DNA from: an uncultured bacterium
GTDB taxonomy: Bacteria > Omnitrophota > Omnitrophia > Omnitrophales > Aquincolibacteriaceae
NCBI GenBank assembly: GCA_964385615.1
Contig: CAYLPP010000005.1
Coordinates: forward strand, 26,130 to 90,129
Length of the DNA: 64,000 nucleotides
Direction of reading: 5' to 3'
Part shown: in pieces, positions 5,191 to 48,402 of the stretch
Numbering within the stretch: the first letter of the stretch is position 1
How the letters are laid out: every line of letters starts with the position of its first letter
The notes under the pieces: generated by a model
The model's input: the letters and a program-made list of their open reading frames with translations, nothing else
Told to the model about the DNA's origin: nothing
Databases searched by the model: none
Program-made: the position numbers and the translations under genes

Positions 5191-5224
5191 TTTCCTGAAA
5201 GCCTCTCTTTAAGATAGGCACCCT

Positions 5225-15974: not shown

Positions 15975-17080
15975 TAAAAAAAGAAAAATCTTTCGCCGTT
16001 GTCACGACAACGATCCGTATTCCGGAACTCTTGAGACGTTACGCTCAAGATGCCCGTGATTTTAAACGGAAAATCGAGCAATTTGTGATTGCCGGGGATC
16101 GAAAAACCCCCGATGGTGTCCGTGATTTTTGCGCGCGGCTTTCTGAAGAATTTCAAATTCCTTTTGTTTATCTTTCCGCGCAGGATCAAGATAATTATTT
16201 AAAAACCCGGCCGCGGCTTAAAGAATTTCTTCCCTGGAATTGCATTCAGCGCCGGAATGCCGCCGTGCTTTACGCGTATGACAAAGGTGAAGCCGACATT
16301 ATCGTGACGCTGGATGATGATAATTTTATCTCCCATTCTGATTATTTCGGATGTCACGCCCATATCGGAGACGAGGATGAGGTTGAAGCTGTGAGCTCTT
16401 CGGCTGGATGGTGGAACATTTGTGAAATGCTGGAAGAGAGTAAGGGCCGGTATTTTTATCACAGGGGATACCCGCTTTCAAAACGCTGGCCAAGGGATGA
16501 AAAAATCAAAGTTCAAAAAATCCGGGCTTGCGCGGTGGTTAACGCCGGGCTCTGGCTTGATGATCCGGACGTGGATGCTCTGACCCGCTTGTCTTTTCCC
16601 GTCCGGGCTTCGCGCAGAAGCTCCCTTTTTAGAAACCGCGTAGCCTGCGCTCCGGGAACCTGGTCTCCGTTCAATTCACAAAATACAGCATTGGCCCGCG
16701 AAGTGATTCCGGCCTACTTTTTATTTCCGTATATCGGCCGGTATGATGATATTTGGGCGAGCTATGTCGTTCGGGCGATCGCGGATTATTTGGGAGACGT
16801 AGTGACTTATGGAACTCCGGTGGTCCGTCAAAAGCGTAACCCGCATGATTATTTTAAAGATTTTGACGACGAGCGTTTCGGTTTAACGCACAACGACGTT
16901 TTTTTGAAAGCGCTGACTGCCTGCCGGTTTCAAGGGAAAACGTACCGCGATTGTTTTGCCGAAATTGCCGAGCAGTTTCCCGCCCGGATCCATGAAGCTT
17001 GCAGGTCTTTAAAAAAAGACGCGGCGATTTTCGAGAAAGTCGTTGAAGCCATGAAAATTTGGAAAGAAACGTTTCGATGA
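15971..17080 (+). CDS. Reversibly-glycosylated-polypeptide (RGP/GT75) family protein, UDP-arabinopyranose mutase-like
   Basis: Blocks match plant RGP/UAM: VVTTTIR, TLDDDNF (DDD motif), HRGYPLS, GLWLDDPDVDALTRL, IGRYDDIWASYVVRAIADYLG. ATGA overlap with the SDR gene. The longer track ORF from 15881 runs through the SDR 3' end. Confidence 0.6.
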   Translation: MIKKEKSFAVVTTTIRIPELLRRYAQDARDFKRKIEQFVIAGDRKTPDGVRDFCARLSEEFQIPFVYLSAQDQDNYLKTRPRLKEFLPWNCIQRRNAAVLYAYDKGEADIIVTLDDDNFISHSDYFGCHAHIGDEDEVEAVSSSAGWWNICEMLEESKGRYFYHRGYPLSKRWPRDEKIKVQKIRACAVVNAGLWLDDPDVDALTRLSFPVRASRRSSLFRNRVACAPGTWSPFNSQNTALAREVIPAYFLFPYIGRYDDIWASYVVRAIADYLGDVVTYGTPVVRQKRNPHDYFKDFDDERFGLTHNDVFLKALTACRFQGKTYRDCFAEIAEQFPARIHEACRSLKKDAAIFEKVVEAMKIWKETFR

Positions 17081-22569: not shown

Positions 22570-23714
22570 TGGAAGGCATGAATTATCATCTTGCCGTGAT
22601 CGCTGAAGACGGCCGCTCTTGGGCTGGCGGAGAGGTTTACCTTCGAAATATGATAACGGCGCTGAAGGTTTCAAAAAATGGAAAAAAAGCAAAGATTACG
22701 GTTTTATATTTCCCCGGCCGGACACTCGAACAAATTCAAAGAAGTTACCCTGAGGCGGATGCTTTTATCGAAATGCCCGGCGGGCGGGGAGTTATCAATT
22801 TTTTAAGGAAAATCAAACTGAACTTCTGCAAACTTAAAACCGTGAACGCGGTCATGGGAACTTTCCGGCCGGAATTTTTTAAAAAAATTCCCTTTTTGTG
22901 CTGGATCCCAGATTTACAGTATGTCAGCATGCCTGAGCTTTTTTCGAATTCGGAACGAATCCGTCAGCATGAACTTAATCGGAGCCGGGTTCAAAGCGCC
23001 CATATGATTACGGTGACGAGCCGGACGGTTCTCGATGATATGCGGGGTTGCTTCCCGGAAGGTGTTTTGAAAACGAGACTTTTGGAGCCGGTAAATCTGG
23101 TTCCTGAAACCGTTTATGAGCAGGACCCGGCTGAAATAGCCCAAAAATACGGACTTCCTGAGAAATTTTTTCATATGCCGAACCAGTTTTGGGCGCATAA
23201 AAATCATGAAATGGTTTTGGAAGCCCTTTCTCTTCTTAAAAAAGATCATCCGGATATTTGCGTTGTCTGCACCGGCCGGCCGTACGAATTCCGGGATCCT
23301 GCTTTTTTTAACCGTCTCTTGACTCAGGTTTCGCTTAAGGGTGTAAGATCACAATTTGTGCTTTTGGGTCATATCCCGGGAAAAGATATGTTCGCGCTCA
23401 TGCGCCAGTCTATCGCTCTTCTTCAGCCGTCGCTTTTTGAAGGCTGGAGTAATTCCGTTGAAGAGGCCAGAACTTTAGGGAAAACCGCTATTGTTTCGGA
23501 TTTACCCGTGCATCGGGAGAAAAAAATTCCGGGAGCTGTTTTTTTTGATCCGAAAAACGCAAAACAGCTGGCGGATATTTTGAAAGAGCTTCATTTGAAG
23601 AAAAAATTCGGACCCGACCTAAGTATGGAAAAGCAAGCCCGCGCGGAGCTTCCGGAGCGGATTGAGGTTTTTTCGGAAAAATTTATGGGAATTTTAAATG
23701 AAATCAAAAAATAA
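22566..23714 (+). CDS. Glycosyltransferase family 4 (GT-B)
   Basis: EGWSNSVEEARTLGKTAI C-terminal motif. ATGATG overlap with the preceding gene. Confidence 0.7.
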   Translation: MMEGMNYHLAVIAEDGRSWAGGEVYLRNMITALKVSKNGKKAKITVLYFPGRTLEQIQRSYPEADAFIEMPGGRGVINFLRKIKLNFCKLKTVNAVMGTFRPEFFKKIPFLCWIPDLQYVSMPELFSNSERIRQHELNRSRVQSAHMITVTSRTVLDDMRGCFPEGVLKTRLLEPVNLVPETVYEQDPAEIAQKYGLPEKFFHMPNQFWAHKNHEMVLEALSLLKKDHPDICVVCTGRPYEFRDPAFFNRLLTQVSLKGVRSQFVLLGHIPGKDMFALMRQSIALLQPSLFEGWSNSVEEARTLGKTAIVSDLPVHREKKIPGAVFFDPKNAKQLADILKELHLKKKFGPDLSMEKQARAELPERIEVFSEKFMGILNEIKK

Positions 23715-25014
23715 AGAACGGGTCTACATTCTTGGCGGCGGAGTCACCGGTTTGGCCGCGGGGATTGCTTCCGGCGTCAAAGTTTTTGAAAAAACCGCTT
23801 CGCCGGGCGGAATCTGCTCCTCGTATTACGTAAGAAAAGGTTCAAAGAAAAGGCTTCCCGAACCGCCGAAGAACGCGGAAGCTTACCGGTTTGAAATCGG
23901 CGGAGGGCACTGGATTTTCGGCTGTGACGGTGAAACCGCGAAATTCCTTTCCCGGTTCTGCAGTTTTAAGAAATACAGCCGGCGTTCGTCGGTTTTCTTT
24001 TCCCGAAATAAAATCCGGCTTCCTTACCCGCTCCAGGAACACGCGGAGCTTCTCGGGAAACCGGTTTTCGAAAAGATTCTTCGTGAAAAGAAAAGAGGTT
24101 TTCATCGGAAAATCAGAACCATGGCGGATTGGCTGGAAGCTTCTTTCGGAAAAACTCTTTGTAAGCTTTTCTTTTTCCCTTTTCATGAAAAATACACGGA
24201 TGGGCTTTACCGGAAAATTGCTCCGCAAGACGCTTATAAGTCGCCTCGATTGGGAAGAGCTAATCAGGCAAAGAAAAAACCCGCCGGCTACAACCCCGAT
24301 TATTTTTACCCTTCCAAAGGTTTAGGGTATTTGTGCGCGGGACTGGCTTCCGGATGCCGGATTGGATACGGGAAAAAGGCGGTGCGTATTGATTCTAAGA
24401 AAAGAATCGTTTGGTTCTCAGACGGCACAAAAATTTCTTATGACAGGCTTGTTTCAACCCTGCCGTTGAACCGTATGCTGGAACTGACAGGGCTTAAAAC
24501 CGGAGAAAAACCCGCGCCTTTTACTTCTGTTCTGGTTTTAAATATTGGAGCTGAACGGGGAGTTTCCTGCCCTCCGGATCACTGGCTCTATGTGCCGGAT
24601 ACAAAGTCCGGATTCAGCCGCGTTGGTTTTTATAGTAACGTCGATACCGGGTTTTTACCGCTTTCGGCAAGAGTGAAAAAAAATCGGACCAGCATTTATG
24701 TGGAGAAAGCTTTCGCAAACGGGCGGAAACCTTCAGAAGCGGAAATAAAACGGTATTCAGCTGAAGCCGTGCGCGAACTTCAATCATGGGGCTGGATTGG
24801 TAAAACGGAAGTTGTGGATCCGACATGGATTGACGTGGCTTACACCTGGTCTTATCCGGATTCCGGCTGGACGAAAAAAGCAATTGATGTCTTGGAGCGG
24901 CGGGACATTCATCCGCTTGGCCGTTACGGCCGCTGGCATTTTCAGGGGATCGCGCAATCTATTCGGGACGGTCTTGAAGCTGGGCGTGTGTTGAAGGGAA
25001 GGAAGAATGCCTAA
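23698..25014 (+). CDS. NAD(P)/FAD-dependent oxidoreductase (amine-oxidase/UDP-galactopyranose-mutase-like fold)
   Basis: N-terminal YILGGGVTGLAAG dinucleotide-binding motif and FEKTASPGGICSSY. Function uncertain. Confidence 0.5.
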   Translation: MKSKNKERVYILGGGVTGLAAGIASGVKVFEKTASPGGICSSYYVRKGSKKRLPEPPKNAEAYRFEIGGGHWIFGCDGETAKFLSRFCSFKKYSRRSSVFFSRNKIRLPYPLQEHAELLGKPVFEKILREKKRGFHRKIRTMADWLEASFGKTLCKLFFFPFHEKYTDGLYRKIAPQDAYKSPRLGRANQAKKKPAGYNPDYFYPSKGLGYLCAGLASGCRIGYGKKAVRIDSKKRIVWFSDGTKISYDRLVSTLPLNRMLELTGLKTGEKPAPFTSVLVLNIGAERGVSCPPDHWLYVPDTKSGFSRVGFYSNVDTGFLPLSARVKKNRTSIYVEKAFANGRKPSEAEIKRYSAEAVRELQSWGWIGKTEVVDPTWIDVAYTWSYPDSGWTKKAIDVLERRDIHPLGRYGRWHFQGIAQSIRDGLEAGRVLKGRKNA

Positions 25015-28133: not shown

Positions 28134-29290
28134 GTTCGGAAAAACTTCACATTTGCTATGTGATCGCGCCCGGCGGAGGGCCTGAAACCTACGTGCGGAA
28201 TTTGGCGCCATGGCTGACCGCGCAGGGGCACAGAGTTTCCGTAGTTACTCTTGGCAAAGAACTCCATTTTCCGCCGGAGATTAAAACGGTTTGCGCGCGG
28301 GGTGCCGTGAAACATTATTGGGTTTCGAAATTTTTCGGTAATTTCCGGCAGTGGGCCCTGCGGCTGAGAAGTTTTGAGTGGGAACAGGCGATTAAAGGGT
28401 CTTTGGAAGAGATTGAAAGAACGCGAAAAGTTGATTTGGTGGAGGTGACGGAAGGGATTTCGATTGGTCTTTTAAGAAAGCGCTGGAAGGTTGTGGTCCG
28501 GATTCACGGCTCGGACTGGAGTTTCCGGCATTTCTGCCGTGATGAAGGAAGCCGTAATGATTACGCGCTGATTCAGGCCGAAAAGAAACAGCTCGAGCAA
28601 GCGAACGGCGTTATTTCGATCAGCCGTCATTCCGCCGATCATGTTAGTAAGGCCTGCCATTTTTCAAGGAACCTCATTGAAGTTATTCCGTATCCCGTTG
28701 TACAGCATTTCAAATATAAGAGAGACGGCAATAAGCCCGAAAACCGCATCCTCAGCGTGGGGCGGCTGGAAAAAAGAAAAGGAACCCATACTCTCGTTCA
28801 GGCCATGGAAATTGTTTGGAAAAAATTTCCCGAAATAGAACTTTGTCTTTTTGGGCATGAAGCAGGATTTTCTAAAGAACAACTGCTGAGGATGGTTTCG
28901 GAAAAGAACCGTTCAAAAATCGGTTTTATGGGTTTTGTTTCCCAGGAAACGCTCGCGGATTATTATTCAAAGTCCGTTTTATACGCAGCGCCCACTCAGT
29001 ATGAAACGTTCGGCTACACCTTATTGGAGGCTATGTCCTTCGCGTTGCCTGTTGTCACCACGGCTGTCGGTGCGATTCCGGAGTTGATTGAGGATGGAGT
29101 CAACGGTAAGCTTGTTCCTTACGGCGACTTTAAAAAATTAGCCGGTGTGATCACGGAACTTATAGAAGACCCGCTTCAAAGAGAGAAGATGGGGGAGAAT
29201 GGTTTGCGGAAAGCCGGTGAATATACTTTGGAAAAAATTGCTCCCAGAACACTCGAGTTTTATTTTAAGACGCTGAAGGCGGATTCATGA
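28130..29290 (+). CDS. Glycosyltransferase family 4 (GT-B)
   Basis: ETFGYTLLEAMSFALPVV motif. GTGA overlap with the preceding gene. Confidence 0.75.
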   Translation: MSSEKLHICYVIAPGGGPETYVRNLAPWLTAQGHRVSVVTLGKELHFPPEIKTVCARGAVKHYWVSKFFGNFRQWALRLRSFEWEQAIKGSLEEIERTRKVDLVEVTEGISIGLLRKRWKVVVRIHGSDWSFRHFCRDEGSRNDYALIQAEKKQLEQANGVISISRHSADHVSKACHFSRNLIEVIPYPVVQHFKYKRDGNKPENRILSVGRLEKRKGTHTLVQAMEIVWKKFPEIELCLFGHEAGFSKEQLLRMVSEKNRSKIGFMGFVSQETLADYYSKSVLYAAPTQYETFGYTLLEAMSFALPVVTTAVGAIPELIEDGVNGKLVPYGDFKKLAGVITELIEDPLQREKMGENGLRKAGEYTLEKIAPRTLEFYFKTLKADS

Positions 29291-31032
29291 TTTCAATCGT
29301 CATACGCACTAAAAATGAGGCGAAGGCAATTGAGAAAACACTTCAGCTTTGCCTGTCCCAGAAAGAGGTTCCGGAATTTGAAATAATCGTGATTGATTCC
29401 GGATCGACGGACGGAACTCTGGATATTATCCGCCGTTACCCCGCCGTGAAAATTCTTCATTATGACCAGCCGGTTTTTAGTTTTGGACACGCTTTAAACC
29501 AGGCTTTCAAGGAAGCTAAGGGAGATATTTTGGTTGCGTTGAGCGCGCACGCTTACCCGGCAAGCGAGTATTGGCTGAAAAATCTTATCGAACCCTTTGA
29601 GGATCCACAAGTTGCCGGTGTTTATGGACGGCAGCTGCCCCATAAAGATGCCTGGCCGCCGGTTGAGCGTGAATATTGCGTGGGATATGGAGCGAATCCC
29701 TTAAAGATCATCTCGGCGGAGAAAGTTACTTTTTCAAACGCGAATTCAGCCATTCGAAAATCCTGCTGGCAGGAACGGTTTTTTGCGGAGCATTTAATGC
29801 ATACGGAAGATGTGGAATGGGCTCACGCCATGGTTCAATCCGGATACATTATTCATTATCGTCCTAAAGCTGAGGTTTATCACTCTCACAACGAGTCCTT
29901 GAAGCAGGTTTTTGACCGCTGTTATAAAGGGATGAAGGGATATCGCCTGATTAAAGGTGGAAACCGGCAAAGGGAGCTTGGGGTTTTTTGGATTTTTCCG
30001 AAATGGTACGGGGAAACCAGCCGGGATATTCGGTGGGTTCTAGAAAAAAAGACCGGGTATAAGTGGATTTTTATTGCACCGGTGTACCGGCTTTTTTATG
30101 TACTGGGGCTTATTTCAGCCGATATGCCCGGCGCTTTATGGGTGCCGTTGGAAAAAGTCTGTAATAAAATTTCAAAAAAAATGATAGGGAAAACAGAAAG
30201 CGCGCCGTGCAACGAGGCTTTTCCCGTCTTTCACTTTGAAGCGAACCGTGAATCCGGGTTAAGACTCCGTGAAATCTGGCGGTATCGGGAACTTCTGTTC
30301 TTCCTCATGTGGCGGGATATCAAAGTCCGTTACAAGCAGACCGCTCTCGGTGCCGCATGGGCCATCATTCAGCCGTTTATGACCATGGTTATTTTCAGCA
30401 TTTTCTTCGGTCATTTAGGGAAGATTCCTTCGGATGGAATTCCTTACCCGCTGTTTTCTTTTACGGCACTGGTTCCCTGGACTTTTTTTGCCAACGGCTT
30501 AACGCAATCGTCTAACAGTCTGGTGGGAAGCTCCAATTTGATTACGAAAGTTTATTTCCCGCGGCTGATTATTCCTATTGCGTCGGTTTTGACGGGTGTT
30601 ATTGACTTTCTGCTGGCGTTTCTAGTTCTGATCGGAATGATGCTTTGTTTTGGTCTTCACATTACTTCTTCGGTGATCTGGCTTCCGGTGTTTTTGTTTC
30701 TCGCCCTTGTGACCGCTCTCGGGGCGGGTTTCTGGCTTTCGGCTTTAAACGTGGAATTTAGAGACGTTCGGCATGTCATGCCGTTTTTAATTCAGTTTTG
30801 GATGTTCGCGACACCGATTGCTTACCCAAGCAGTCTTCTTCCAGAGCCCTGGAGAACTTTTTATGGGCTTAATCCGATGACCGGCGTTATCGCGGGATTT
30901 CGCTGGGTCCTTTTAGGCAATGACCCGCCCGGGCCCATCATTTTCGTGTCAGCTTTTACGGCAATTCTTATTTTAATCAGCGGGCTGAGGTATTTTAGGC
31001 GCATGGAAAAGCATTTCGCGGATGTGGTGTGA
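29287..31032 (+). CDS. Fusion protein: N-terminal glycosyltransferase family 2 domain + C-terminal ABC-2 polysaccharide export permease (Wzm)
   Basis: aa 1 to ~290 are GT-A (ISIVIRTKNE … IIVIDSGSTDGT). aa ~320-581 are a Wzm paralog (WRDIKVRYKQTALGAAWAIIQPF, six TM helices). One uninterrupted 581-codon frame. Confidence 0.7.
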   Translation: MISIVIRTKNEAKAIEKTLQLCLSQKEVPEFEIIVIDSGSTDGTLDIIRRYPAVKILHYDQPVFSFGHALNQAFKEAKGDILVALSAHAYPASEYWLKNLIEPFEDPQVAGVYGRQLPHKDAWPPVEREYCVGYGANPLKIISAEKVTFSNANSAIRKSCWQERFFAEHLMHTEDVEWAHAMVQSGYIIHYRPKAEVYHSHNESLKQVFDRCYKGMKGYRLIKGGNRQRELGVFWIFPKWYGETSRDIRWVLEKKTGYKWIFIAPVYRLFYVLGLISADMPGALWVPLEKVCNKISKKMIGKTESAPCNEAFPVFHFEANRESGLRLREIWRYRELLFFLMWRDIKVRYKQTALGAAWAIIQPFMTMVIFSIFFGHLGKIPSDGIPYPLFSFTALVPWTFFANGLTQSSNSLVGSSNLITKVYFPRLIIPIASVLTGVIDFLLAFLVLIGMMLCFGLHITSSVIWLPVFLFLALVTALGAGFWLSALNVEFRDVRHVMPFLIQFWMFATPIAYPSSLLPEPWRTFYGLNPMTGVIAGFRWVLLGNDPPGPIIFVSAFTAILILISGLRYFRRMEKHFADVV

Positions 31033-32243
31033 TGAATCAAACGGCCATTCAGATACATAATCTAAGTAAACGCTACAAAATCGGCCGGGCCGAATCATAT
31101 AAAACGCTTCGCGACGCCATCAGTTTGTGGGGCCCGAAAATTTTTTCTGGAAAAGGAAAATCGGAAGATGCCGAAGAGGGCATGATATGGGCGTTGAAGA
31201 ATATTTCTTTCGAAATTAAAAAAGGGGAAGTGGTTGGAATTATCGGCCGTAATGGTGCGGGGAAAAGCACACTGCTCAAAATTCTTTCGCAAATTACGGA
31301 TCCCTCTGAAGGATCGGTGGATATTTACGGAAAGGTCAGTTCTTTGCTTGAGGTTGGAACCGGATTTCATCCTGAGTTAACCGGCCGGGAGAACGTTTAT
31401 TTGAATGCGGCGATTTTGGGGATGAAAAAGCGCGAGATTCAAAATCGATTTGATGAAATTGTGGCTTTTGCTGAGGTTGAGAAGTTTATGGATACGCCGG
31501 TCAAACATTTCTCCAGCGGGATGTATATGCGCTTGGCTTTTTCGATCGCGGCCCATTTGAGTCCGGATATTATGATTGTGGATGAGGTTTTGGCCGTCGG
31601 CGACGCGGCGTTTCAGAAAAAGTGTCTTGATAAAATGGACGGCGCCGCCAAATCCGGACGGACGATTCTTTTTGTGAACCACAATCTCGGGCAAATCCGC
31701 AGACTTTGCACTTCAGCGCTTTGGCTGGAAAATGGACAATGCAAATCTTTCGGCCCTGTCGGCGAAGTGACGGCCGCTTATCAGGCATCACTGTCTAATG
31801 TCCATTTTGATGTGAATGAATCGATAAAGAATCAAGAAGGTTTTGTATCCTGGAGAATTGAAGGCTTGGACTCAAATGTTATTGAACGGGAAAAGCCGTT
31901 TACGCTGGAATGCCGTCTTCAGCTTAAACGGAAGGTATACAACGGTCATCACGGGCTGATTCTGAAGAATGTCGACGGCCAAAATGTCGCAGGCTGGGCG
32001 TTCAATGGGTTAAAGCTTGAACCCGGACTGCATATCCTTCGATATCAAATTCCATACCTGCCTTTGCGTCCCGGGACCTATTATCTCTACGCTTCGCTTT
32101 GGGATGGGGCTTTAAAAATTGACGCAAGCCATTTAATGCCTGAATTAATTTTTGCCACTCCTGAGTATAGCGAACTTAGCGATGAATGGGCGGGGATTTT
32201 AAATCTTCCCTGCAGCATTGATATTAAAAAGGTTTCTCAGTGA
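31029..32243 (+). CDS. wzt: Polysaccharide ABC exporter ATP-binding protein with a C-terminal carbohydrate-binding domain (Wzt paralog)
   Basis: Walker A GRNGAGKST, highly similar to the 12863 gene through the NBD (LLEVGTGFHP.LTGREN.YLNAAILGM), with a divergent C-terminal domain. GTGATG overlap with the preceding gene. Confidence 0.85.
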   Translation: MMNQTAIQIHNLSKRYKIGRAESYKTLRDAISLWGPKIFSGKGKSEDAEEGMIWALKNISFEIKKGEVVGIIGRNGAGKSTLLKILSQITDPSEGSVDIYGKVSSLLEVGTGFHPELTGRENVYLNAAILGMKKREIQNRFDEIVAFAEVEKFMDTPVKHFSSGMYMRLAFSIAAHLSPDIMIVDEVLAVGDAAFQKKCLDKMDGAAKSGRTILFVNHNLGQIRRLCTSALWLENGQCKSFGPVGEVTAAYQASLSNVHFDVNESIKNQEGFVSWRIEGLDSNVIEREKPFTLECRLQLKRKVYNGHHGLILKNVDGQNVAGWAFNGLKLEPGLHILRYQIPYLPLRPGTYYLYASLWDGALKIDASHLMPELIFATPEYSELSDEWAGILNLPCSIDIKKVSQ

Positions 32244-34183
32244 AAATTACTCTCGTCAGCCGCTGTTATCCGCCCCACTCAGGTTATGGCGGAATCGCGG
32301 TTTACAGCTATTACCTTGCCCGCGCTTTGGCAAAACAGGGACACACGATCAATGTTGTCGCCGCGAGATTTTCCCCGGAAATTCCGGAAGAGACCGTTGA
32401 TGAAGGGGTTCGTGTCATAAGAATCCTGGTTAAGCACAGGTCTTTTTTTCAGCGGGTTCCTTTTTTTGGAAAATTTTACAGGCCGGTACAGCGGTTTTTC
32501 TACAGCTTGAAAGTTTCCTCGATTTTAGCGGGCATAGATAAAAACCAGAAACAGGATATTGTGGAATTCCCTGAAATTGAGGCAGAAGGATTCTGTTATC
32601 TTTTGCGGAAAAAACGGGCCAGGGTTATTGTCCGGTGCCATACTCCCACGTTTGTTCTGAAGAAATATTACAATCAGGAAGAAGTTTTTTACGACACTTT
32701 CTTCATGGGACTGATGGAAACATTCTGTATACGGAAAGCGGATCTTCTCAGCGCGCCGTCTCATGATATGGCGGCGACGATCGCCCTTGAATGCGGGATT
32801 CCGGAAAACCAGATTCGAGTGATTCCTAACGGTTTAGGCCCTGAGTTATTTGTTGATGGCGGAAAAAACCGAGATCCGAAAGAATTGCTTGTCCTTCATG
32901 TCGGGCGTCTGGACAGACTGAAAGGCGTTGAAGTTCTGGCGCAGGCGATTCCTCTTGTTCTTAAAGAAAACCCGGAAACCCGTTTTGTTTTTATCGGTCA
33001 ATCGATTTCTGATGCAAAGGGAGTTAACTGGAAACGGCGTCTGGAAGCCTATTTGGCAGAGCGAAAAAGCATGGATAAGGTCCAGTTTTTGGAGCACCTG
33101 GATCAATCCGCGATGCTTCAGTGGTACACCCGCGCGGATATCGCGGTGGTTCCCTCAATTCTCTACGAGAGTTTTTCCTATACTTGCGCTCAGGCTATGG
33201 CCGCGGGATTGCCTTTGGTCGCGACCCGAATTGGCGGTATTCCTGAAACTCTTGGGGAAGATTCCGCCGGTATTTTAGTCAAGGCGGGAGATGCTCAGGC
33301 TCTGGCGGATGGAATTCTGAAATTCGCGAAAAATCCTGAAATGCGGCTGGAGGCAGGCAGGAAAGCCCGAAAAAGAGCTGAGGAGAAATTCAGTCAGGAA
33401 AAAATCCTTCCCGATTACCTGGCGTATTGTGCCGAAGAAGATTTTCAGAAACATCATACTTCGTCTGTTAGTAAGATATCTGAGAAGGGGAAGAAAGCCG
33501 TTATTCTTGCTTACCATGAAGTCGGAGAAGAAAAGGGAAGCCCATTCCCTTCGATTTACGTGGTTTTGGAAAATTTCAAACGGCAAATTAACGCTTTAAA
33601 ACGGCTTGGATATAAATTTATTTCCATGGACGAGTTTATTTCCGGCCTTCAGGGTAAAACAAAGCTTCCAAAATACTCAGCCGTCATTACTTTTGATGAT
33701 GGGTACGAAGGGGTTTATAAAAACGCGTTTCCGTTTCTGCGCAGTCAAAATTTACCGGCGACTGTTTACGCGATCGCGGATAAGGTTGAGACAAGGGAGA
33801 ACACAAGTTTCCCCTATCTATCCGCCGAACAGCTTAAAGAGATGGCGGGCTGTGGAATTTCGATAGGGTCTCATTCTTTTTCACACGCCGATTTAAAGCA
33901 ATGTTCAGGTGAAATCTTACGCCGCGAGATCTCAGATTCTAAAAAGAAGCTGGAAGAAATCACCGGAACCGAAGTCCGGCATTTCTGCTACCCGTTCGGG
34001 TCTTTTAACCATAAAACAGCTGATCTGGTTGCCGGAGAAGGCTACCAGAGCGCCGTTTCAACCCTGTTCGGAAGCAGGCATCGGGTCAGTGATATTTTTC
34101 ATTTAAAAAGAGTCAGCGTGGGGTACCGCTGGAGCCTTCCTTATTTTCTGTATAAAGTTCATCAGAGCAGGTCAAGGCCATAA
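32240..34183 (+). CDS. Fusion protein: glycosyltransferase family 4 (N-terminal ~400 aa) + polysaccharide deacetylase NodB/CE4 domain (C-terminal)
   Basis: The N-terminal part has MKITLVSRCYPP … ESFSYTCAQAMAAGLPLV. The C-terminal part has CE4 motifs TFDDGY and HSFSH, plus ILAYHEVGEE. Single 647-codon frame. Confidence 0.75.
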   Translation: MKITLVSRCYPPHSGYGGIAVYSYYLARALAKQGHTINVVAARFSPEIPEETVDEGVRVIRILVKHRSFFQRVPFFGKFYRPVQRFFYSLKVSSILAGIDKNQKQDIVEFPEIEAEGFCYLLRKKRARVIVRCHTPTFVLKKYYNQEEVFYDTFFMGLMETFCIRKADLLSAPSHDMAATIALECGIPENQIRVIPNGLGPELFVDGGKNRDPKELLVLHVGRLDRLKGVEVLAQAIPLVLKENPETRFVFIGQSISDAKGVNWKRRLEAYLAERKSMDKVQFLEHLDQSAMLQWYTRADIAVVPSILYESFSYTCAQAMAAGLPLVATRIGGIPETLGEDSAGILVKAGDAQALADGILKFAKNPEMRLEAGRKARKRAEEKFSQEKILPDYLAYCAEEDFQKHHTSSVSKISEKGKKAVILAYHEVGEEKGSPFPSIYVVLENFKRQINALKRLGYKFISMDEFISGLQGKTKLPKYSAVITFDDGYEGVYKNAFPFLRSQNLPATVYAIADKVETRENTSFPYLSAEQLKEMAGCGISIGSHSFSHADLKQCSGEILRREISDSKKKLEEITGTEVRHFCYPFGSFNHKTADLVAGEGYQSAVSTLFGSRHRVSDIFHLKRVSVGYRWSLPYFLYKVHQSRSRP

Positions 34184-38190: not shown

Positions 38191-39624
38191 ATGAAAAAAA
38201 CAATATCAAAAGCTAAGGAACGCTGGAGAACAATCCTTTCATTTTTGGGAATTCAGGCATTCTTTTCCTTAATGGTGATTAGTTTTTCATGGGGCGGGCA
38301 GAATATTTTTGCTGTCCTGATTGGAATTCCTCCGCTCGTGGCCGCCGCGTTAATGAGCCGGCGGAGCTTGTTTTTCATTTTTTACTTTATGTGCGTGCTT
38401 TTTGTTGTGGGTCAGCGCACTCTCTACTGGGGGCCTTCGCTCCGGTTCGTGCCTGGAGAAATGCTTTTATATCTTCTCGGGTTTCTTTGCCTTGGGTATA
38501 AAACACCGTCTCCGCTTCTACGGCAAGGAGGAATTCCGGCAGCTGTTTGGGTTTTATTTTTAGCGACGTTTTTCGCGGTTTATTCGACGGCCCGGTGGAC
38601 TTATTATCAGCCTGGAGATTTAAACCAAGCTTTCTTTTACGCTAAAATGATGTGGTTGAGCATTCCCGCTTTCTTTGTATGCGGCCGGCTGATTCAGCGC
38701 TTTGAGCATGTCCAGACAACGATTCTTCTAATTTCAGTAGGATGTTTCTTCCTTTCTGGGTTGGCGCTGGCTGAATATTACCATCTGCCCTTTATCCGTT
38801 ATTTCGGAGGTTTCGTGGAAGCGAAAAGCCATGATTCATTCAGCGCCGAAGGCTTTAGGCGCCTTGGCGCCAGTTTCTGGGGTGGTCCTATGCTTGCGGG
38901 TTATTTAACGGTTTCCTTTCCTGTGATCATGTCTCAGTTTTTTAATTCGAAATCCAACGTTCAAAAAATGATTACCCTGGGAACCTTAGTCATGAATTTT
39001 CTAGTGATCTATTATTCAGGACATCGCGGACTTTGGGTGACTTGTCTGATTTCAATCGCTATTTTCTTTTATTTAAAAGGGCTTAAAGGAATTTTTATCC
39101 TGCTTCTTTTAGGATCTCTGGGACTTCATTTTGTGCCGGATATCGCGAAAGAAAGAATACAATCTGTGGTAGGGTCGACGGAGGATTCCAGCGCTAAAAA
39201 ACGCAAAGAGAGAGCTGAATATGCCTGGGAGATGGTTAAGCGCGATCCTATTATCGGAAGCGGATGGGGTTCAAGCGGGCTGGTTCACAGCGATTTTCTG
39301 CAGCTTTGGGCGGATGCCGGCGGCGTCGCTTTTCTTTCACTGCTGTTTATTTTCCTGCAAATTACCAGCCGTCTTTGGATTTGGTTTCGAAAGATCAGAG
39401 ACCGAAGTTATCGGGAATATTACTTCGGGTTATTTGCTTCGGTTTCAGCCGGGTTTATCATTTTATGGCACCAAGCCTGGTTTAACCTCCCGGAACAATT
39501 TTTTCCTTTCTGGATTCTGATGGCGCTTGCTTACCATTATCCCACTATTTGTTTGAATGATACGAGAGTCGCTTTAACAACTTTAATGAATAAAGTTGAA
39601 ATGGAGAAAAAACAAAATGCCTAA
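38191..39624 (+). CDS. Wzy_C-domain membrane protein: O-antigen ligase/polymerase family (alternatively a PglL-type O-oligosaccharyltransferase)
   Basis: About 12 TM helices with a periplasmic loop carrying IIGSGWGSSGLVHSDFLQLWADAGGVAF, a Wzy_C-like motif. Preceded by the only 63-nt gap in this part of the locus. Confidence 0.6.
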   Translation: MKKTISKAKERWRTILSFLGIQAFFSLMVISFSWGGQNIFAVLIGIPPLVAAALMSRRSLFFIFYFMCVLFVVGQRTLYWGPSLRFVPGEMLLYLLGFLCLGYKTPSPLLRQGGIPAAVWVLFLATFFAVYSTARWTYYQPGDLNQAFFYAKMMWLSIPAFFVCGRLIQRFEHVQTTILLISVGCFFLSGLALAEYYHLPFIRYFGGFVEAKSHDSFSAEGFRRLGASFWGGPMLAGYLTVSFPVIMSQFFNSKSNVQKMITLGTLVMNFLVIYYSGHRGLWVTCLISIAIFFYLKGLKGIFILLLLGSLGLHFVPDIAKERIQSVVGSTEDSSAKKRKERAEYAWEMVKRDPIIGSGWGSSGLVHSDFLQLWADAGGVAFLSLLFIFLQITSRLWIWFRKIRDRSYREYYFGLFASVSAGFIILWHQAWFNLPEQFFPFWILMALAYHYPTICLNDTRVALTTLMNKVEMEKKQNA

Positions 39625-40777
39625 AAAATTCATTGTTTTCGGAAGCCCCAGAATTGAGCGTGAAGAGATTCGGGAGGTTATGGATTCGATTAAGACCGGG
39701 TGGCTTTCATCCGGCCCCAAAGTTGTCCGGTTTGAAGAGGATTTTAAAGCTTATATGCAGTCAGATTACGCCGTCGCGGTGAATTCATGCACGGCCGGAC
39801 TTTTTCTTTCTCTGGTTGCCGCAGGCATAGGGCAGGGGGACGAAGTGATCACCACTCCGCTGACTTTCGCGGCGACCGCGAATGTGATTATTCACCGCGG
39901 AGCCAAACCCGTTTTCGTGGATGTGGATCCGCAAACCATGAATATTGACGTGAATCAGATCGAGAGAAAAATCACAAAACGCACCCGCGCGATCATTCCC
40001 GTTCATTTCGCCGGCCGTGCCTGCGATATGAACGCGATCGGAACAATCGCTAAAAAACACAAGCTCTTAGTGATTCAAGACGCGGCGCACGCTCTCGAAA
40101 CGCTTTATGACGGAAGAAAAATCGGAGATTTTGGAGATTTGACGGCGTTCAGTTTTTACGCGACTAAAAATCTCACCACCGGTGAAGGCGGGATGGTGAC
40201 GACTTCCAAAAGAAAATGGGCTGAAGCGATTCAGGTTCTCGCTTCGCAGGGGATGACGCGCGGTGCCTGGCGCCGTTATTCCGATAAAGGATTTAAACAG
40301 TATCAGATTATTCTTCCCGGGTTTAAATTCAACATGATGGATATGCAGGCCGCGTTCGGGATTCACCAGCTCAGAAAAATCGAAAGTTTCCTCAAAGTCC
40401 GCGAGAAACTCTGGGCGGCTTATGATAAAGCCCTGCAAAGTCTGCCTTTGGAAATTCCCGCGGAGCCGGAGCCGGGAAGCCGCCACGCCCGCCATTTATA
40501 CACGGTGCTTTTAGACACGGACGCTCTTAAAATCAACCGTGATCAATTTCAGCACGAGCTTTTTAAAATGAAGATCGGAACCGGAGTGCACTTTATCGCT
40601 TTGCACCTCCATCCGTATTACCGCAAAACTTACGGATTCAGACCCAAGGATTTCCCCGCGGCGTCGGATATTTCCGCCCGCACCCTGTCACTTCCGATGT
40701 CGGCAAAATTGACTTCGGCGGAAACGGCTTATGTCATTGAATCTATCAGAAAAATCGTGAAGAAAAACAAACGCTGA
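39617..40777 (+). CDS. DegT/DnrJ/EryC1/StrS family PLP-dependent sugar aminotransferase (PglE/ArnB/WbpE-like)
   Basis: GWLSSGPKVVRFEEDF, and SFYATKNLTTGEGG gives the PLP lysine region. Start taken at MPKKFIVFG (39617). Confidence 0.8.
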   Translation: MPKKFIVFGSPRIEREEIREVMDSIKTGWLSSGPKVVRFEEDFKAYMQSDYAVAVNSCTAGLFLSLVAAGIGQGDEVITTPLTFAATANVIIHRGAKPVFVDVDPQTMNIDVNQIERKITKRTRAIIPVHFAGRACDMNAIGTIAKKHKLLVIQDAAHALETLYDGRKIGDFGDLTAFSFYATKNLTTGEGGMVTTSKRKWAEAIQVLASQGMTRGAWRRYSDKGFKQYQIILPGFKFNMMDMQAAFGIHQLRKIESFLKVREKLWAAYDKALQSLPLEIPAEPEPGSRHARHLYTVLLDTDALKINRDQFQHELFKMKIGTGVHFIALHLHPYYRKTYGFRPKDFPAASDISARTLSLPMSAKLTSAETAYVIESIRKIVKKNKR

Positions 40778-41325
40778 TGCTGAAAGAAACCGTGAAAACG
40801 TTATTCCGTTTCCTGATCTGGGCGGCTTATGCCTCTTACAAAATCGAAGGGGTTAACGCCCTCCTTCTATTAATGCCGGCCAAATTGATTGTTCCCACGC
40901 TTAGGAAATACGGCGCGGTGATCGGAGACGGCACCGTGATTCATTCTCCTTTAATCATTCATAATGCCGGTACTGATTACCGCAACCTTACTATTGGCAG
41001 TCATTCTTATTTCGGCCGTGCCGTGTTTCTTGACCTTAAAGACAAGATTTCGATTCAGGACAATGTGACGGTTTCGATGCGCGTGACTCTTCTGACTCAC
41101 ACCGACGCGGGTGACAGTGATGTTAAAACGGCGCTTCCTGTGTCTCAAGCGCCGGTGAGGATTGATTCCGGTTCTTATGTCGGCGCCAGTGCCACTATCC
41201 TTCAGGGAGTTCATATGCATGAGGGTTCCGCGGTCGGCGCGGGCAGTGTGGTGCTTCATGATGTGCCCGCTAAGACCATTGTCGCGGGGAATCCTGCCAA
41301 AACAATCAAAACACTTGATGCCTGA
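40777..41325 (+). CDS. Left-handed beta-helix (hexapeptide-repeat) sugar N-acetyltransferase (PglD/WbpD-like)
   Basis: Tandem hexapeptide repeats IGDGTVIHSPLII … IDSGSYVGASATI … VGAGSVV. TGATG overlap with the preceding gene. Confidence 0.7.
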   Translation: MLKETVKTLFRFLIWAAYASYKIEGVNALLLLMPAKLIVPTLRKYGAVIGDGTVIHSPLIIHNAGTDYRNLTIGSHSYFGRAVFLDLKDKISIQDNVTVSMRVTLLTHTDAGDSDVKTALPVSQAPVRIDSGSYVGASATILQGVHMHEGSAVGAGSVVLHDVPAKTIVAGNPAKTIKTLDA

Positions 41326-44951: not shown

Positions 44952-45958
44952 TGACGGATGAACTTCCTTTTGTATCAGTGATCATGCCTGTCCGTAACGA
45001 AGGCGCTTGTATGAAAGACGCTTTGGAAGCTGTGCTGCGGCAAGATTATCCCGCGGACCGGATGGAGGTAATAGCCGCGGATGGTATGTCGACCGATGCA
45101 ACCCGGAAGGTTATTGGAGAATTTCAAAAGAAATATACTAATTTAAAATTAATCGATAATCCCGGGAAGATTGTCAGTACCGGCTTGAACGCGGCGATTT
45201 TGAAATCCGCGGGCAGTATCATCATCCGCATGGACGGCCATACGGTCATGGCTCCTGACTATGTGCGCGCCTGTGTTTCGGCTTTAAAGCGGTCCAATGC
45301 CGATAATGTCGGCGGCAGGATGCGGGCCGAGGGGCGGGGTTTTGTCGGAAAAGCGATCGCATTGGCCACAAGCACTCCCTTCGGTGTCGGCGGAGCCCGG
45401 TTTCATTATTCCGAAAAAGAGGAGTGGGTGGATACGGTCTATCTTGGAGCCTGGAAGCGGGAAATTTTTGAAAAAATCGGACTCTTTGACGAAGAAATGA
45501 TCCGCAATCAGGATGATGAATGGAATTACAGACTGCGCAAGGCTGGCGGCCGGATCTTGATCAATCCCGGGATTCGATCGGTTTATTCGGTGAGGGAAAG
45601 TTTCACAGCGCTCTGGAAGCAGTATTTTAATTACGGCTTTTGGAAAGTCCGTGTTTTTCAAAAACATCCGGCTCAAATGCGCTTACGGCAATTCGTGCCC
45701 TCTTTATTCGTTTCGATTTTGATAGGTTCGGCTCTGATCAGTTTGATTTTAAAGAACCCCGCGTATTTTTTGACGCCGGCAACTATTTATTTGCTCGCGG
45801 ATCTTTGTGCGTCGCTTTGGATTTCAGGAAAATCCGGGACACGCTATTTGGCCGTTCTTCCCGCGGTTTTTTTGATTCTTCACGCAAGTTATGGAGCGGG
45901 GTTTCTTTGGGGAATTCTCAATGCTGCCAAGTTTAAAAAAGTCCGGGTTGAACCCTGA
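44951..45958 (+). CDS. Glycosyltransferase family 2 with C-terminal TM helices (GtrB/ArnC/DPM1-like polyprenyl-phosphate sugar synthase candidate)
   Basis: FVSVIMPVRNEGACM … VIAADGMSTD GT-A core plus two C-terminal TM helices (FVPSLFVSILIGSALISLIL…). Confidence 0.65.
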   Translation: MTDELPFVSVIMPVRNEGACMKDALEAVLRQDYPADRMEVIAADGMSTDATRKVIGEFQKKYTNLKLIDNPGKIVSTGLNAAILKSAGSIIIRMDGHTVMAPDYVRACVSALKRSNADNVGGRMRAEGRGFVGKAIALATSTPFGVGGARFHYSEKEEWVDTVYLGAWKREIFEKIGLFDEEMIRNQDDEWNYRLRKAGGRILINPGIRSVYSVRESFTALWKQYFNYGFWKVRVFQKHPAQMRLRQFVPSLFVSILIGSALISLILKNPAYFLTPATIYLLADLCASLWISGKSGTRYLAVLPAVFLILHASYGAGFLWGILNAAKFKKVRVEP

Positions 45959-45962
45959 AGAT

Positions 45963-47681
45963 ATGAATAAACTTTTTTCTGAAAATACGCGGACCGTAAA
46001 ATGGGGATTCTGGCTCATTTTAATGGCCGCGTTTTTTGTTAGGACTTGGGGGATTCATTACGGCCTTCCTTACGCTTACCACCCGGATGAACCTCTGAAC
46101 GTAAATGTCGTTTTGTCGATGGGATACCGCCACGATTTCAATCCTCATTGGTTCATTCATCCCGCATTGATGTTTTATTTCTTAGGGGTTCTCTACGGGG
46201 TTTATTTCGCGGCGGGGCTGGCCGCGGGATTTTGGAAGAACTCTCACGATTTTGGGCTGCTGATTCTTCAGGACCCTTCAAATATTTATTTAATAGGCCG
46301 AATAGCCTCCGCTCTTTTAAGCACCATAACCGTTGCCGCGGTTTACGAGGCGGGCCGGAAGCTGTTCGATAATAAAACAGGCTTAACGGCGGCCGTGATA
46401 CTTTCGTTTCTTTACCTGCCGGTTTACTTTGGGCACTTTATCAAAACAGAGTCGCTCCAAACCTTACTTACGCTTATTTCATTTCTGTTTTCGATCCGGA
46501 TTTTTGAACAAGGTAAAACGCGCGACTATTTGATTAGCGGTTTATTCGCAGGTTTGGCGGCGGCGGCTAAACAGCCGTCTCTTCTGGTGGTTCTTGCCGG
46601 TATTGCCGGGCATTTCTTCCATCAGAAAAAGACTCGCGGTTCCGAATGGGGAAAACTTCTGCTTCTTCTGACGGCGGCAGGCGCGGGTTTTTTTGCCGGC
46701 TCTCCATTCAGCGTTATTAAGTTCAGCGAAATGCTCCAAGCTTATCAGGGGATCAAATTTTACACGGTGGGAAGAGCGGGGGATTCTCTCCAGACCTGGT
46801 TTCATGATTTAATGACGGACATAGGCCCCGGCCCGCTTTTAGTTTTTTTTCTCTCATCGGTATATTTGATCATTAAGCCTTCGAAGAAAAAAAGCATGGC
46901 CGCGGTTTTCCCGTGGGCACACTTTATTCTGTTTTCTCTTCCAGCTTGGAAGAATGTACATTGGCAAGTCGTCACGATGCCTTTTTTTGCTTTATTGGCC
47001 GCTGATTTTTTGCAGGAGACAGCTTCGGCGGCCCGCCGTTTTTGGGGATGGAACCGCGGTTTAACGATGGCGCTGCTGGTTGGGGTGATGATGGCCGGCC
47101 CGTTGTTTCGGTGTCTTGCCTATGACGCTCAATTGAACCGGGTTGACACGAGAACTCAGGCTAAAGAGTGGATTGAACGGAATATTCCAGCCGGTTCAAA
47201 AATCGCGATGGAGCGCGGGCGGTTTATGAGCCGGAATGCACCGCCCATTAGAGAAAGCGCTGAAAGCATTCAGAGAAATTATATGTCTCCGCAAAGCCCT
47301 CTTTTGAAAAACGGATATCAAATGCAGGGTGTTGAAACTTATTACCGTATGCTGATTGAAGCGCAGGAGGGCAAGGGAGATGCCGCTTATGACATCATCC
47401 CTTTGTTTTATGAACCTTTTGGAGGGCGGGCTTCTTTTTGGCAAAGGCCGGCGATTCAATCTCTGGAGGAATATGAAGCCCAAAAAGTGGAGTATGTGAT
47501 TATTTCCGGCATGGCGGAGGAAAAGAGTTCGGCGGCCGGATCTTCCGAGGGGATGTGGGATCATTTTTACAAAAGTCTTCAAAATACAAATCGCGCGGTG
47601 TTGATTAAGGAATTTGTTCCGGGGAATCATCCTGGGCCGGCGATTCACATTTACCGGTTAAAAAAAGAGGAAAATACGTGA
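45963..47681 (+). CDS. GT-C fold membrane glycosyltransferase (GT39/GT83 ArnT/PMT-like)
   Basis: About 11 TM helices. First periplasmic loop YAYHPDEPLNV is a DE-type motif. C-terminal soluble domain. The track ORF begins at 45891; ATG 45963 avoids overlap with the preceding gene. Confidence 0.6.
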   Translation: MNKLFSENTRTVKWGFWLILMAAFFVRTWGIHYGLPYAYHPDEPLNVNVVLSMGYRHDFNPHWFIHPALMFYFLGVLYGVYFAAGLAAGFWKNSHDFGLLILQDPSNIYLIGRIASALLSTITVAAVYEAGRKLFDNKTGLTAAVILSFLYLPVYFGHFIKTESLQTLLTLISFLFSIRIFEQGKTRDYLISGLFAGLAAAAKQPSLLVVLAGIAGHFFHQKKTRGSEWGKLLLLLTAAGAGFFAGSPFSVIKFSEMLQAYQGIKFYTVGRAGDSLQTWFHDLMTDIGPGPLLVFFLSSVYLIIKPSKKKSMAAVFPWAHFILFSLPAWKNVHWQVVTMPFFALLAADFLQETASAARRFWGWNRGLTMALLVGVMMAGPLFRCLAYDAQLNRVDTRTQAKEWIERNIPAGSKIAMERGRFMSRNAPPIRESAESIQRNYMSPQSPLLKNGYQMQGVETYYRMLIEAQEGKGDAAYDIIPLFYEPFGGRASFWQRPAIQSLEEYEAQKVEYVIISGMAEEKSSAAGSSEGMWDHFYKSLQNTNRAVLIKEFVPGNHPGPAIHIYRLKKEENT

Positions 47682-47685
47682 GCTC

Positions 47686-48402
47686 ATGAAGTTATCTATT
47701 ATTATTCCCACCTACAATGAGTATGCCACGATTGAACAGCTGATCGAGTATGTGCAGTCAGTGCGGTATCCCGTCGAGCATGAAATTATTATTGTAGATG
47801 ACGCCTCCATTGACCGTACCTATGAGAAAGAAAAAATGCTGCGCATAAAAAGCAGAAAAGAAAAAAATAATATCAGGCTCTTTAAGAACAGAATTAACCG
47901 GGGTAAAGGGTACTCGATTAGAAAAGGGATTCGCCGGGCCTCGGGCGATATCATTATTGTTCAGGATGCTGACCATGAATATGACCCTCACGACATTCCG
48001 AAGCTTTTAGAACCCCTTTTGAAAAATGAAGCGCAGGTTGTTTACGGCAGCAGATTTCTGAACCGGCCTAAGCCGGAGAGAATGGCTTTCCCGAACTGGA
48101 TTGCCAACCGGTTTCTGACTTGGCTGACCAATCTCTTGTATGGTTTGAAGCTCACGGACATGGAGACCTGTTATAAAGCTTTTAAGGCGGACATTATTAA
48201 AGGTTTAAAGCTGAAGGCAAACCGTTTTACTTTTGAACCTGAAGTCACGGCGTTAATCGCGAAGAAAAGGATTAAAATCATTGAATTGCCAATCAGTTAC
48301 AGGGGAAGAACGGCTGAAGAAGGGAAGAAAATCAAAGCGAGAGACTTTTTTTTCGCGGTTCTTATTTTGATCCGTTACTGTTTTCCGGGAGGACGCGATT
48401 AG
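47686..48402 (+). CDS. Glycosyltransferase family 2, dolichyl/undecaprenyl-phosphate sugar synthase-like (DPM1/ArnC/GtrB class)
   Basis: LSIIIPTYNEYATIEQLI … IIIVDDAS … VQDADHEY, with a Lys/Arg-rich insertion. Confidence 0.65.
   Translation: MKLSIIIPTYNEYATIEQLIEYVQSVRYPVEHEIIIVDDASIDRTYEKEKMLRIKSRKEKNNIRLFKNRINRGKGYSIRKGIRRASGDIIIVQDADHEYDPHDIPKLLEPLLKNEAQVVYGSRFLNRPKPERMAFPNWIANRFLTWLTNLLYGLKLTDMETCYKAFKADIIKGLKLKANRFTFEPEVTALIAKKRIKIIELPISYRGRTAEEGKKIKARDFFFAVLILIRYCFPGGRD

Follow-up and report, generated by a model that had tools for sequence, protein, structure and literature searches.

A GT4 glycosyltransferase joined to a predicted CE4 de-N-acetylase in an ABC-transporter glycan operon of an uncultured Omnitrophota bacterium

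The window analysed here is a stretch of 64,000 nucleotides from contig CAYLPP010000005.1 of an uncultured Omnitrophota bacterium (assembly GCA_964385615.1, positions 26,130 to 90,129 of the forward strand). One of its open reading frames (ORFs) joins a family 4 glycosyltransferase (GT4) and a de-N-acetylase domain of carbohydrate esterase family 4 (CE4, NodB homology) in one protein of 647 amino acids. It is a real and intact but fairly ordinary fusion of enzymes that are already known as partners elsewhere. We consider it a bifunctional, soluble or peripheral cytoplasmic enzyme in which GT4 adds a sugar and CE4 de-N-acetylates an N-acetylhexosamine (HexNAc) of the same lipid-linked glycan, exposing a free amine, and estimate the probability of this reading at about 0.6. 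Coupling of the two activities is supported by their adjacency in both gene orders, their co-varying presence and their repeated independent fusion. The de-N-acetylase chemistry is supported by an intact active site and by the close structural relatives, all of which are de-N-acetylases of N-acetylglucosamine (GlcNAc).

The GTG start codon of the fusion gene (Table 1) shares four nucleotides (GTGA) with the stop of the Wzt-like gene that precedes it, and a methyltransferase gene starts 3 nucleotides past its own stop. Pfam analysis of the 647-residue protein gave Glyco_transf_4 (PF13439, residues 16–199, 77.8 bits, E = 1.3e-21), Glycos_transf_1 (PF00534, residues 210–379, 122 bits, E = 2.5e-35) and Polysacc_deac_1 (PF01522, residues 475–603, 99.9 bits compared to a cut-off of 23.1, E = 1.3e-28). 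Since all three matches lie far above the gathering scores, the domain calls are not due to chance. The combination of a complete GT4 with a CE4 domain stated in the initial annotation is thereby borne out, both domains are complete, and the motifs quoted there were recovered at residues 484 (TFDDGY), 545 (HSFSH) and 310 (ESFSY).

Table 1. Positions in the window of the fusion gene, its domains and selected residues, and of neighbouring genes.
Feature	Position	Strand	Basis or remark
Acyl_transf_3 protein	11679-12866		O-acetyltransferase-like
GT2::Wzm permease fusion	29287-31032	+	Upstream context of GT4::CE4; Pfam
Wzt-like ABC ATPase, weak Wzt_C	31029-32243	+	Directly upstream of GT4::CE4, translationally coupled
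GT4::CE4 fusion gene	32240..34183	+	GTG start, 647 aa, TAA stop; ORF listing and Pfam
GT4 (GT-B) glycosyltransferase domain, residues 1-400	32240..33439	+	Pfam; standalone orthologues; column counts
Fixed YESFSYTCAQAMAAG signature of this GT4 family	33167-33193	+	Fusion gene and orthologues
Linker DFQKHHTSSVSKISEKGKK, residues 401-419 (19 residues)	33440..33496	+	Without start codon, without hydrophobic segment
CE4/NodB-homology de-N-acetylase domain (predicted), residues 420-647	33497..34180	+	Pfam, AlphaFold2, Foldseek
H426 codon, catalytic His (equivalent to PplD H105)	33515..33517	+	Invariant in 73 homologues
D486 (catalytic Asp, PplD D167) and D487 (metal ligand, PplD D168) codons in TFDDG	33695..33700	+	HMMER alignment
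H545-S-F-S-H549, two metal-binding His (PplD H223, H227)	33872..33886	+	HMMER alignment
R624 codon (PplD R302, holds the catalytic Asp)	34109..34111	+	Invariant; HMMER alignment
Class I S-adenosylmethionine (SAM) methyltransferase, 253 aa	34187-34948	+	Pfam; directly downstream of the fusion
DegT aminotransferase	39596-40777		
Hexapeptide acetyltransferase, WcaF-like	40777-41325		

Particular attention was paid to the junction. No in-frame ATG, GTG or TTG was found in the linker, and both the start Met of CE4 and the stop of GT4 are gone from the fusion gene. Compared with the N-terminal tail of a standalone CE4, KSAVKTKERGADIPIFHFH aligns to SSVSKISEKGKKAVILAYH, homologous in frame though diverged, and the linker descends from the N-terminal tail of a once separate CE4 protein. 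The two alternative frames around the junction were searched for a frameshift and contain stops only, with neither a GT4-like tail nor a CE4-like start, so that the domains are not parted by a frameshift, a possibility raised in the initial annotation. Judged from its sequence, GT4::CE4 should be made as a single obligatory polypeptide.

For the GT4 domain 60 standalone orthologues of approximately 400 amino acids each were found, which are 42–56 % identical to it and stop at about query residue 400–405. Both Rossmann-like halves are matched by GT4 profiles above threshold, and the domain can be aligned over its full length to the structures of MshA and BshA. According to column counts in the orthologue alignment the family shows no variation at H134, R223, K228, E310, G332 and G333. 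The label E-x7-E, which had been given to the domain, has to be corrected: the motif reads E310-x7-Q318, in place of the canonical form with Glu at both positions. Since Gln occupies the second position in 58 of 61 GT4 orthologues, Q318 is a trait of the family and not a lesion or a sign of decay. EX7E is a hallmark motif of GT4, not a CAZy criterion for membership. The best relatives in the PDB include the GlcNAc transferases MshA and BshA, together with sucrose-phosphate and glycogen synthases and mannosyltransferases; in an NCBIfam search of the domain no model reached its cut-off.

The first barrel strand of the CE4 domain (AVILAYHEV) starts right after the linker. In an alignment of 73 CE4 homologues, H426, T484, F485, D486, D487, G488, H545 and R624 are invariant (73/73), and Y425, H549, Y584, P585 and G587 are conserved in at least 90 %. 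A HMMER alignment to PplD of Streptococcus pyogenes (PDB 6dq3, E = 1.6e-19) sets D486/D487, H545/H549 and R624 on the PplD residues given in Table 1; it begins downstream of H426, and this residue is equated with H105 on the grounds of the invariant YH motif and the similarity in fold. In PplD those residues are catalytic or metal-binding, and mutation showed that H105 and D167 are required (PMC8807736). The metal triad Asp-His-His (D487, H545, H549) and the catalytic pair D486 and H426 are all present, and the AlphaFold2 model of residues 406–647 exhibits a mean predicted local distance difference test score of 94 and a predicted template modelling (TM) score of 0.91. The intact metal triad assumed in the initial annotation could thus be confirmed, and its counter-proposal of a pseudo-enzyme fails.

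Foldseek matched the model with five solved CE4 de-N-acetylases of the PDB at a probability of 1.00 and TM scores of 0.78–0.83, which corresponds to the distorted β/α barrel of these enzymes. Query-normalised TM scores amount to 0.83 for PplD (0.83/0.88; 27 % identity), 0.81–0.82 for PgaB, 0.80 for BA0330 and 0.79 each for BC0361 and IcaB, and canonical CE4 enzymes (SpPgdA, acetylxylan esterases) remain below 0.5. The PplD/PgaB/IcaB subgroup is characterised by a catalytic His on the N-terminal strand, the lack of the MT4 Asp and a C-terminal Arg holding the catalytic Asp (described for PplD in PMC8807736). With Y425-H426 on strand 1 and R624 aligned with R302 of PplD, the arrangement is of the PplD/PgaB/IcaB type, and on the basis of the model and of these residues the domain can be placed in this circularly permuted subgroup. 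ArnD (8t0j) was found at rank 44 with a TM score of 0.43/0.40 and 13 % identity, so that a close similarity to ArnD-type lipid-linked deformylases is lacking, and the PIG-L family is not among the Pfam matches of the fusion protein at E ≤ 0.01. The likeness to ArnD and PIG-L drawn in the initial annotation is valid as logic, as both ArnD and PIG-L/LmbE N-deacylate a lipid-linked amino sugar at the cytoplasmic face. It does not extend to structure: TM scores of approximately 0.8 to PplD, PgaB and IcaB stand against only 0.43 for ArnD, and PIG-L/LmbE has a different fold. Taken by its residues, the CE4 domain is a predicted metal-dependent de-N-acetylase with an intact catalytic site.

The hydropathy of the complete protein reaches a maximum 19-residue Kyte-Doolittle mean of 1.19, and no membrane or signal segment was predicted across the 647 residues. 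Since such segments are missing, both domains should be cytoplasmic, in agreement with the earlier placement of the deacetylase on the side of the glycosyltransferase. The extracytoplasmic location typical of PplD, PgaB and IcaB is not shared by the CE4 domain, which has no leader and sits behind a cytoplasmic GT4. Its nearest standalone relatives are likewise leaderless. As 51 of the 73 members of the CE4 clade carry no hydrophobic N-terminal segment, leaderless and presumably cytoplasmic CE4 enzymes of the PplD-like type appear to be common.

Among the 120 best matches listed from 5.8 billion protein clusters only the query protein joins both domains. The other 119 are GT4 proteins of about 400 amino acids with 43–56 % identity, three of them with other extra domains. 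A whole-protein scan of GTDB representative genomes gave only distant GT4 or CE4 matches (25–29 % identity). The CE4 part finds its best matches in standalone proteins of about 225–300 amino acids, among them P0121 (48 % identity) and P0122 (44 %). On one contig (L001) P0121 (258 aa) occurs together with the GT4 orthologue P0005 (402 aa) and a methyltransferase of 250 aa. In this locus and in L014 the three genes are separate, and those of GT4 and CE4 overlap by 4 bp (ATGA). In L014 they belong to a larger syntenic cluster in the order GT4, CE4, methyltransferase, methyltransferase, further glycosyltransferases, GT2, Wzy_C, DegT, hexapeptide transferase, GT2. The contig of P0122 likewise holds GT4, CE4 and a 250-aa methyltransferase.

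The methyltransferase directly downstream of the fusion in the window shares 39–40 % identity, across its full length, with those following CE4 in L001 and L014. With the NodS profile PF05401 it scores 16.8 bits, below the cut-off of 24, and NodS is not among its PDB matches at E ≤ 1e-3. Its PDB and NCBIfam matches span the SAM-binding core only and comprise both N- and O-methyltransferases.

Two further loci, L008 and L009, keep the gene order of the window around GT4. For L008 this order is Wzm, Wzt, a 107-aa ORF, GT4, a short unrelated methyltransferase, GT4, GT2, GT4, Wzy_C, DegT, hexapeptide transferase, GT2, GT4, GT4. In both loci tblastn within 20 kb found neither CE4 nor the orthologous methyltransferase. 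PepA of the window (3159–4655) is 80 %, 76 % and 63 % identical to PepA on the contigs presumed to be those of L009, L008 and L014, respectively, and we take L008 and L009 to be the closer relatives in comparison to L014. Named PepA homologues with 55–65 % identity belong almost exclusively to Candidatus Omnitrophota. Three states of the locus are therefore observed: GT4 alone (L008, L009), coupled but separate genes for GT4, CE4 and methyltransferase (L001, L014), and GT4::CE4 fused and followed by the methyltransferase (window). Since CE4 and methyltransferase are either both present or both absent in related loci, the comparison points to an optional two-enzyme tailoring cassette in an ABC-transporter glycan operon of about 46 kb. 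Either L008 and L009 have lost the cassette or other loci have gained it, and the comparison favours neither. The fusion is lineage-specific and would have arisen by loss of the overlapping stop and start of neighbouring GT4 and CE4 genes.

In addition, 1.84 billion representative proteins were scanned exhaustively with HMMER, and the matches were analysed with Pfam. This revealed at least seven other proteins joining GT4 and CE4, namely P0287 (750 aa, GT4-CE4), P0347 (650 aa, CE4-GT4), P0353 (1003 aa, GT4-CE4-GT4), P0279 (1416 aa) and P0300 (1361 aa, both GT4-GT4-CE4-GT4), P0297 (1132 aa, GT4-GT4-CE4) and P0306 (1368 aa, methyltransferase-CE4-GT4-GT4). Their CE4 domains keep the DD, HxxxH, YPxG and Arg motifs, and a YH motif at the N-terminal side can be seen in five of the seven, those whose extracted segment covered it (the segments of P0287 and P0297 are shorter). 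Because these domains are only 29–38 % identical to that of the window, the seven proteins represent independent fusions. P0287 is preceded by a methyltransferase gene, and standalone CE4 genes of the same clade adjoin GT4 in reverse order (L011, L012). The database distribution, proposed as a check in the initial annotation, accordingly has two sides: joining of both domains recurs in at least seven unrelated proteins, whereas the exact fusion is confined to the query among the best matches listed.

FemAB-like Acetyltransf_6 domains also recur near this GT4 family (L001 4698–5678; L013 2044–3201), and P0026 (L015 8001–10316, 771 aa) is a GT4 orthologue fused to Acetyltransf_6. Re-acylation of the freed amine by such a protein, similar to HfsH/HfsK, was considered and found to be unsupported: the P0026 locus has no CE4 and the window no Acetyltransf_6 gene.

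Comparison with known systems places the fusion among several established partnerships. PplD, PgaB and IcaB share with the window domain the N-terminal catalytic His, the DD pair, HxxxH and the C-terminal Arg; PplD is the best match in structure as well as in sequence, and its polysaccharide is also made in an ABC-transporter-dependent pathway. These enzymes are membrane-anchored or secreted, act after export and are not fused to GT4, whereas the window domain is leaderless and tethered to GT4. HfsH, a CE4 enzyme of Caulobacter holdfast synthesis, was reported as cytosolic and proposed to deacetylate a lipid-linked precursor before flipping (PMC5362036). By this literature description, on which the comparison rests, the logic of deacetylation on the cytoplasmic side is the same, but HfsH is a standalone enzyme of a Wzx/Wzy-type pathway.

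In Acinetobacter baumannii the predicted deacetylase A1S_2901 and the adjacent glycosyltransferase A1S_2900 are both required for the glucosamine (GlcN) branch of the lipooligosaccharide core (PMC10936431), and in outer-core (OC) loci of Acinetobacter Polysacc_deac_1 and Glycos_transf_1 genes are regularly found side by side (PMC4172580). This Pda pair likewise combines Polysacc_deac_1 with a neighbouring glycosyltransferase for a glycolipid whose assembly takes place at the cytoplasmic face; unlike in the window the genes are separate, and lipid A-core serves as the acceptor in place of an undecaprenyl-linked polymer. Streptomyces MatB (SCO2962) is a NodB/CE4-GT2 fusion (PMC4391728). It is similar as a natural union of CE4 and glycosyltransferase in a single polypeptide and differs in the reversed order of domains and in its glycosyltransferase, a PgaC-like GT2 synthase embedded in the membrane. 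The CE4 domain of MatB is extracellular. In view of HfsH, the Acinetobacter pair, MatB, the leaderless majority of the clade and the other fusions, the initial statement that CE4 enzymes acting on exopolysaccharides are periplasmic and unfused cannot be maintained.

A further parallel is the series NodC-NodB-NodS, which runs from a glycosyltransferase via a CE4 de-N-acetylase to a SAM-dependent methyltransferase that N-methylates the freed amine (PMC11681206, citing Geelen 1995). This cytoplasmic series resembles the GT4-CE4-methyltransferase cassette. Differences are that NodC belongs to GT2, that NodB has the canonical CE4 arrangement without permutation, that the Nod enzymes work on a soluble oligosaccharide and that the methyltransferase of the window stays below the NodS cut-off.

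The fusion gene lies in a region from about 10.2 to 56.9 kb in which the + strand carries almost every ORF of some size, often with overlaps, and which is flanked by the housekeeping genes pepA, rsmB and mutY. The run of glycan genes within it extends from about 10.8 to 56.9 kb (~46 kb). More than 15 GT2 and GT4 genes, a Wzy_C protein and nucleotide-sugar enzymes are encoded. The operon is an undecaprenyl-linked, ABC-transporter-exported envelope glycan system with chain assembly on the cytoplasmic face, and the setting fits a cytoplasmic deacetylase. Because the gene is located in such a lipid-carrier and ABC-transporter operon, de-N-acetylation of a lipid-linked HexNAc, as put forward in the initial annotation, is reasonable.

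In the proposed mechanism the GT4 domain would use a nucleotide sugar to extend the growing chain, which is linked to undecaprenyl diphosphate. A HexNAc of this intermediate, in the simplest case the newly attached residue, would then be de-N-acetylated by the tethered CE4, exposing a free amine prior to export. The downstream methyltransferase of the same optional cassette could modify the same region of the glycan. We infer the substrate, the reaction order, the donor sugar and the methyl acceptor. Several points weigh against this mechanism. The donor sugar of GT4 can hardly be read from the sequence, with PDB relatives that mix GlcNAc transferases and glucose or mannose transferases. The closest solved CE4 relatives (PplD, PgaB, IcaB) all act outside the cytoplasm. 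In L008 and L009 the GT4 orthologue is present without CE4, so the activities are separable and CE4 could target another residue. In the literature on glycosyltransferase/CE4 fusions and cytoplasmic CE4 enzymes no biochemically characterised GT4::CE4 fusion was found, and the present one is known from the assembly of one contig of a metagenome-assembled genome (MAG) alone.

The most serious competitor, though clearly less probable than the mechanism above, assumes another order or target. Here CE4 would act on a residue other than that added by GT4, for example the primer sugar at the reducing end, or would prepare a GlcN-type acceptor for GT4, following the logic of PIG-L in glycosylphosphatidylinositol synthesis. 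In line with this, PplD as the closest solved structure acts on a linkage-unit GlcNAc, and the cluster probably makes a di-N-acetylated bacillosamine-like primer, to judge from the phosphoglycosyltransferase-fused dehydratase, DegT and the hexapeptide acetyltransferase. CE4 ahead of GT4 in L011, L012 and P0347 and the GT4 orthologues functioning without CE4 in L008 and L009 are also compatible with it. However, if GT4 needed a deacetylated acceptor, these last orthologues would have no substrate, and the likeness to PplD is at the level of the subgroup only (27 % identity).

An error of assembly or sequencing, with real genes that are separate and overlapping as in L001 and L014, is considered very unlikely. 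The ATGA overlap of the relatives could be bridged by one indel, the exact fusion occurs in one sequence only among the 120 best matches listed, and a second fusion of adjacent genes (GT2::Wzm) is found immediately upstream on the same MAG contig. An indel would merely shift the frame, but in the fusion gene the start Met of CE4, the first few residues of standalone CE4 and the last residues of GT4 are missing. Moreover, the linker has diverged and is still homologous in frame to the CE4 N-tail, whereas the other frames provide neither a homologous tail nor a start codon, and natural GT4/CE4 fusions exist elsewhere. Marginally less probable still is a CE4 domain that is no N-deacetylase and either acts on an O-acetylated sugar, as O-deacetylase or esterase, or binds sugar without catalysis: the family does include O-acetyl esterases and the operon encodes O-acetyltransferase-like proteins (Acyl_transf_3 and WcaF-like, Table 1), but all catalytic and metal residues are conserved, acetylxylan esterases are structurally remote (TM below 0.5) in comparison to the close relatives, all GlcNAc de-N-acetylases, and a pseudo-enzyme is not expected to retain H426, D486, D487, H545, H549 and R624.

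By analogy with the series from NodB to NodS one may speculate further, as a long shot, that the GT4-CE4-methyltransferase cassette right after wzm-wzt builds a cap at the non-reducing end. A HexNAc would be added, de-N-acetylated and N-methylated. The resulting cap would stop growth of the chain and be read by the carbohydrate-binding C-terminal domain of Wzt for export, with the fusion channelling the first two steps. If true, such a cap would represent a chemically new kind of terminator for chains made in ABC-transporter-dependent pathways.

Several observations were made on the remainder of the operon. It contains two separate Wzm/Wzt exporter sets (10813–14149 and 29287–32243, both +). 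In the first, an Acyl_transf_3 membrane acyltransferase lies between wzm and wzt, and the Wzt_C match is solid (E = 6.6e-15); in the second Wzt it is sub-threshold (25.1 bits vs a cut-off of 30.4). The permease of the second set is itself part of a fusion of adjacent genes, GT2 (residues 1 to ~297) in frame with the Wzm ABC-2 permease (318–581). In L009 GT2 (4113–5000) and Wzm (4987–5808) are separate, overlapping genes, 56 % and 70 % identical to the halves in the window. L008 has a separate Wzm (74 % identical), and nothing in it closely matches the GT2 half. An internal in-frame Met (KKMIGK...) is kept in GT2::Wzm, and the permease might also be made alone.

At the head of the operon a NusG paralogue is encoded (10178–10726, +), which may serve as a dedicated antiterminator for the long operon. 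Near its end, an ORF of 830 aa (54390–56882, +) combines a small PglC-like phosphoglycosyltransferase (Bac_transf, 20–206), CoA_binding_3 and a CapD/PglF-like 4,6-dehydratase (Polysacc_synt_2, 502–782); this fusion together with DegT and the hexapeptide acetyltransferase suggests a bacillosamine-like di-N-acetylated primer sugar. Two PMT_2 proteins (ArnT/PMT-like GT-C) are interleaved with AglJ/ArnC/PgfS-like polyprenyl-phosphate GT2s (45891–49591 and 51817–52506, +), which suggests that the glycan is additionally decorated in the periplasm with sugars from lipid-phosphate donors. The neighbouring ORF (52508–54448, +) encodes a polytopic membrane protein of 646 aa with hydrophobic peaks up to about residue 345 followed by ~300 soluble residues. 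It has no Pfam or NCBIfam match and is 35 % identical over ~618 aa to a protein just upstream of the split cassette (L001 1–1914; L014 8009–10000). A protein of 399 aa (15881–17080, +) matches the reversibly glycosylated polypeptide (RGP) family (PF03214, E = 3.7e-12) and, less well, STELLO (a weak match). These families are mostly of plant type, and their presence in a bacterial glycan operon is unusual. Finally, a flavin amine-oxidase-like protein of 438 aa (23698–25014, +; PF01593, weak, E = 4.9e-5) is encoded amid glycosyltransferase genes.

The GT4::CE4 fusion leaves current concepts unchanged, and its modest interest lies in the natural experiment of three states and in the CE4-methyltransferase cassette. 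One glycan locus without, with a split and with a fused cassette is a clean natural example of a fusion revealing a functional partnership, and it argues that a leaderless PplD-like CE4 and a GT4 work together on the cytoplasmic side of glycan assembly. The leaderless PplD-like CE4 class is common in metagenomes, and the fused protein offers a convenient single-polypeptide target to study the origin of free amino sugars in envelope glycans.

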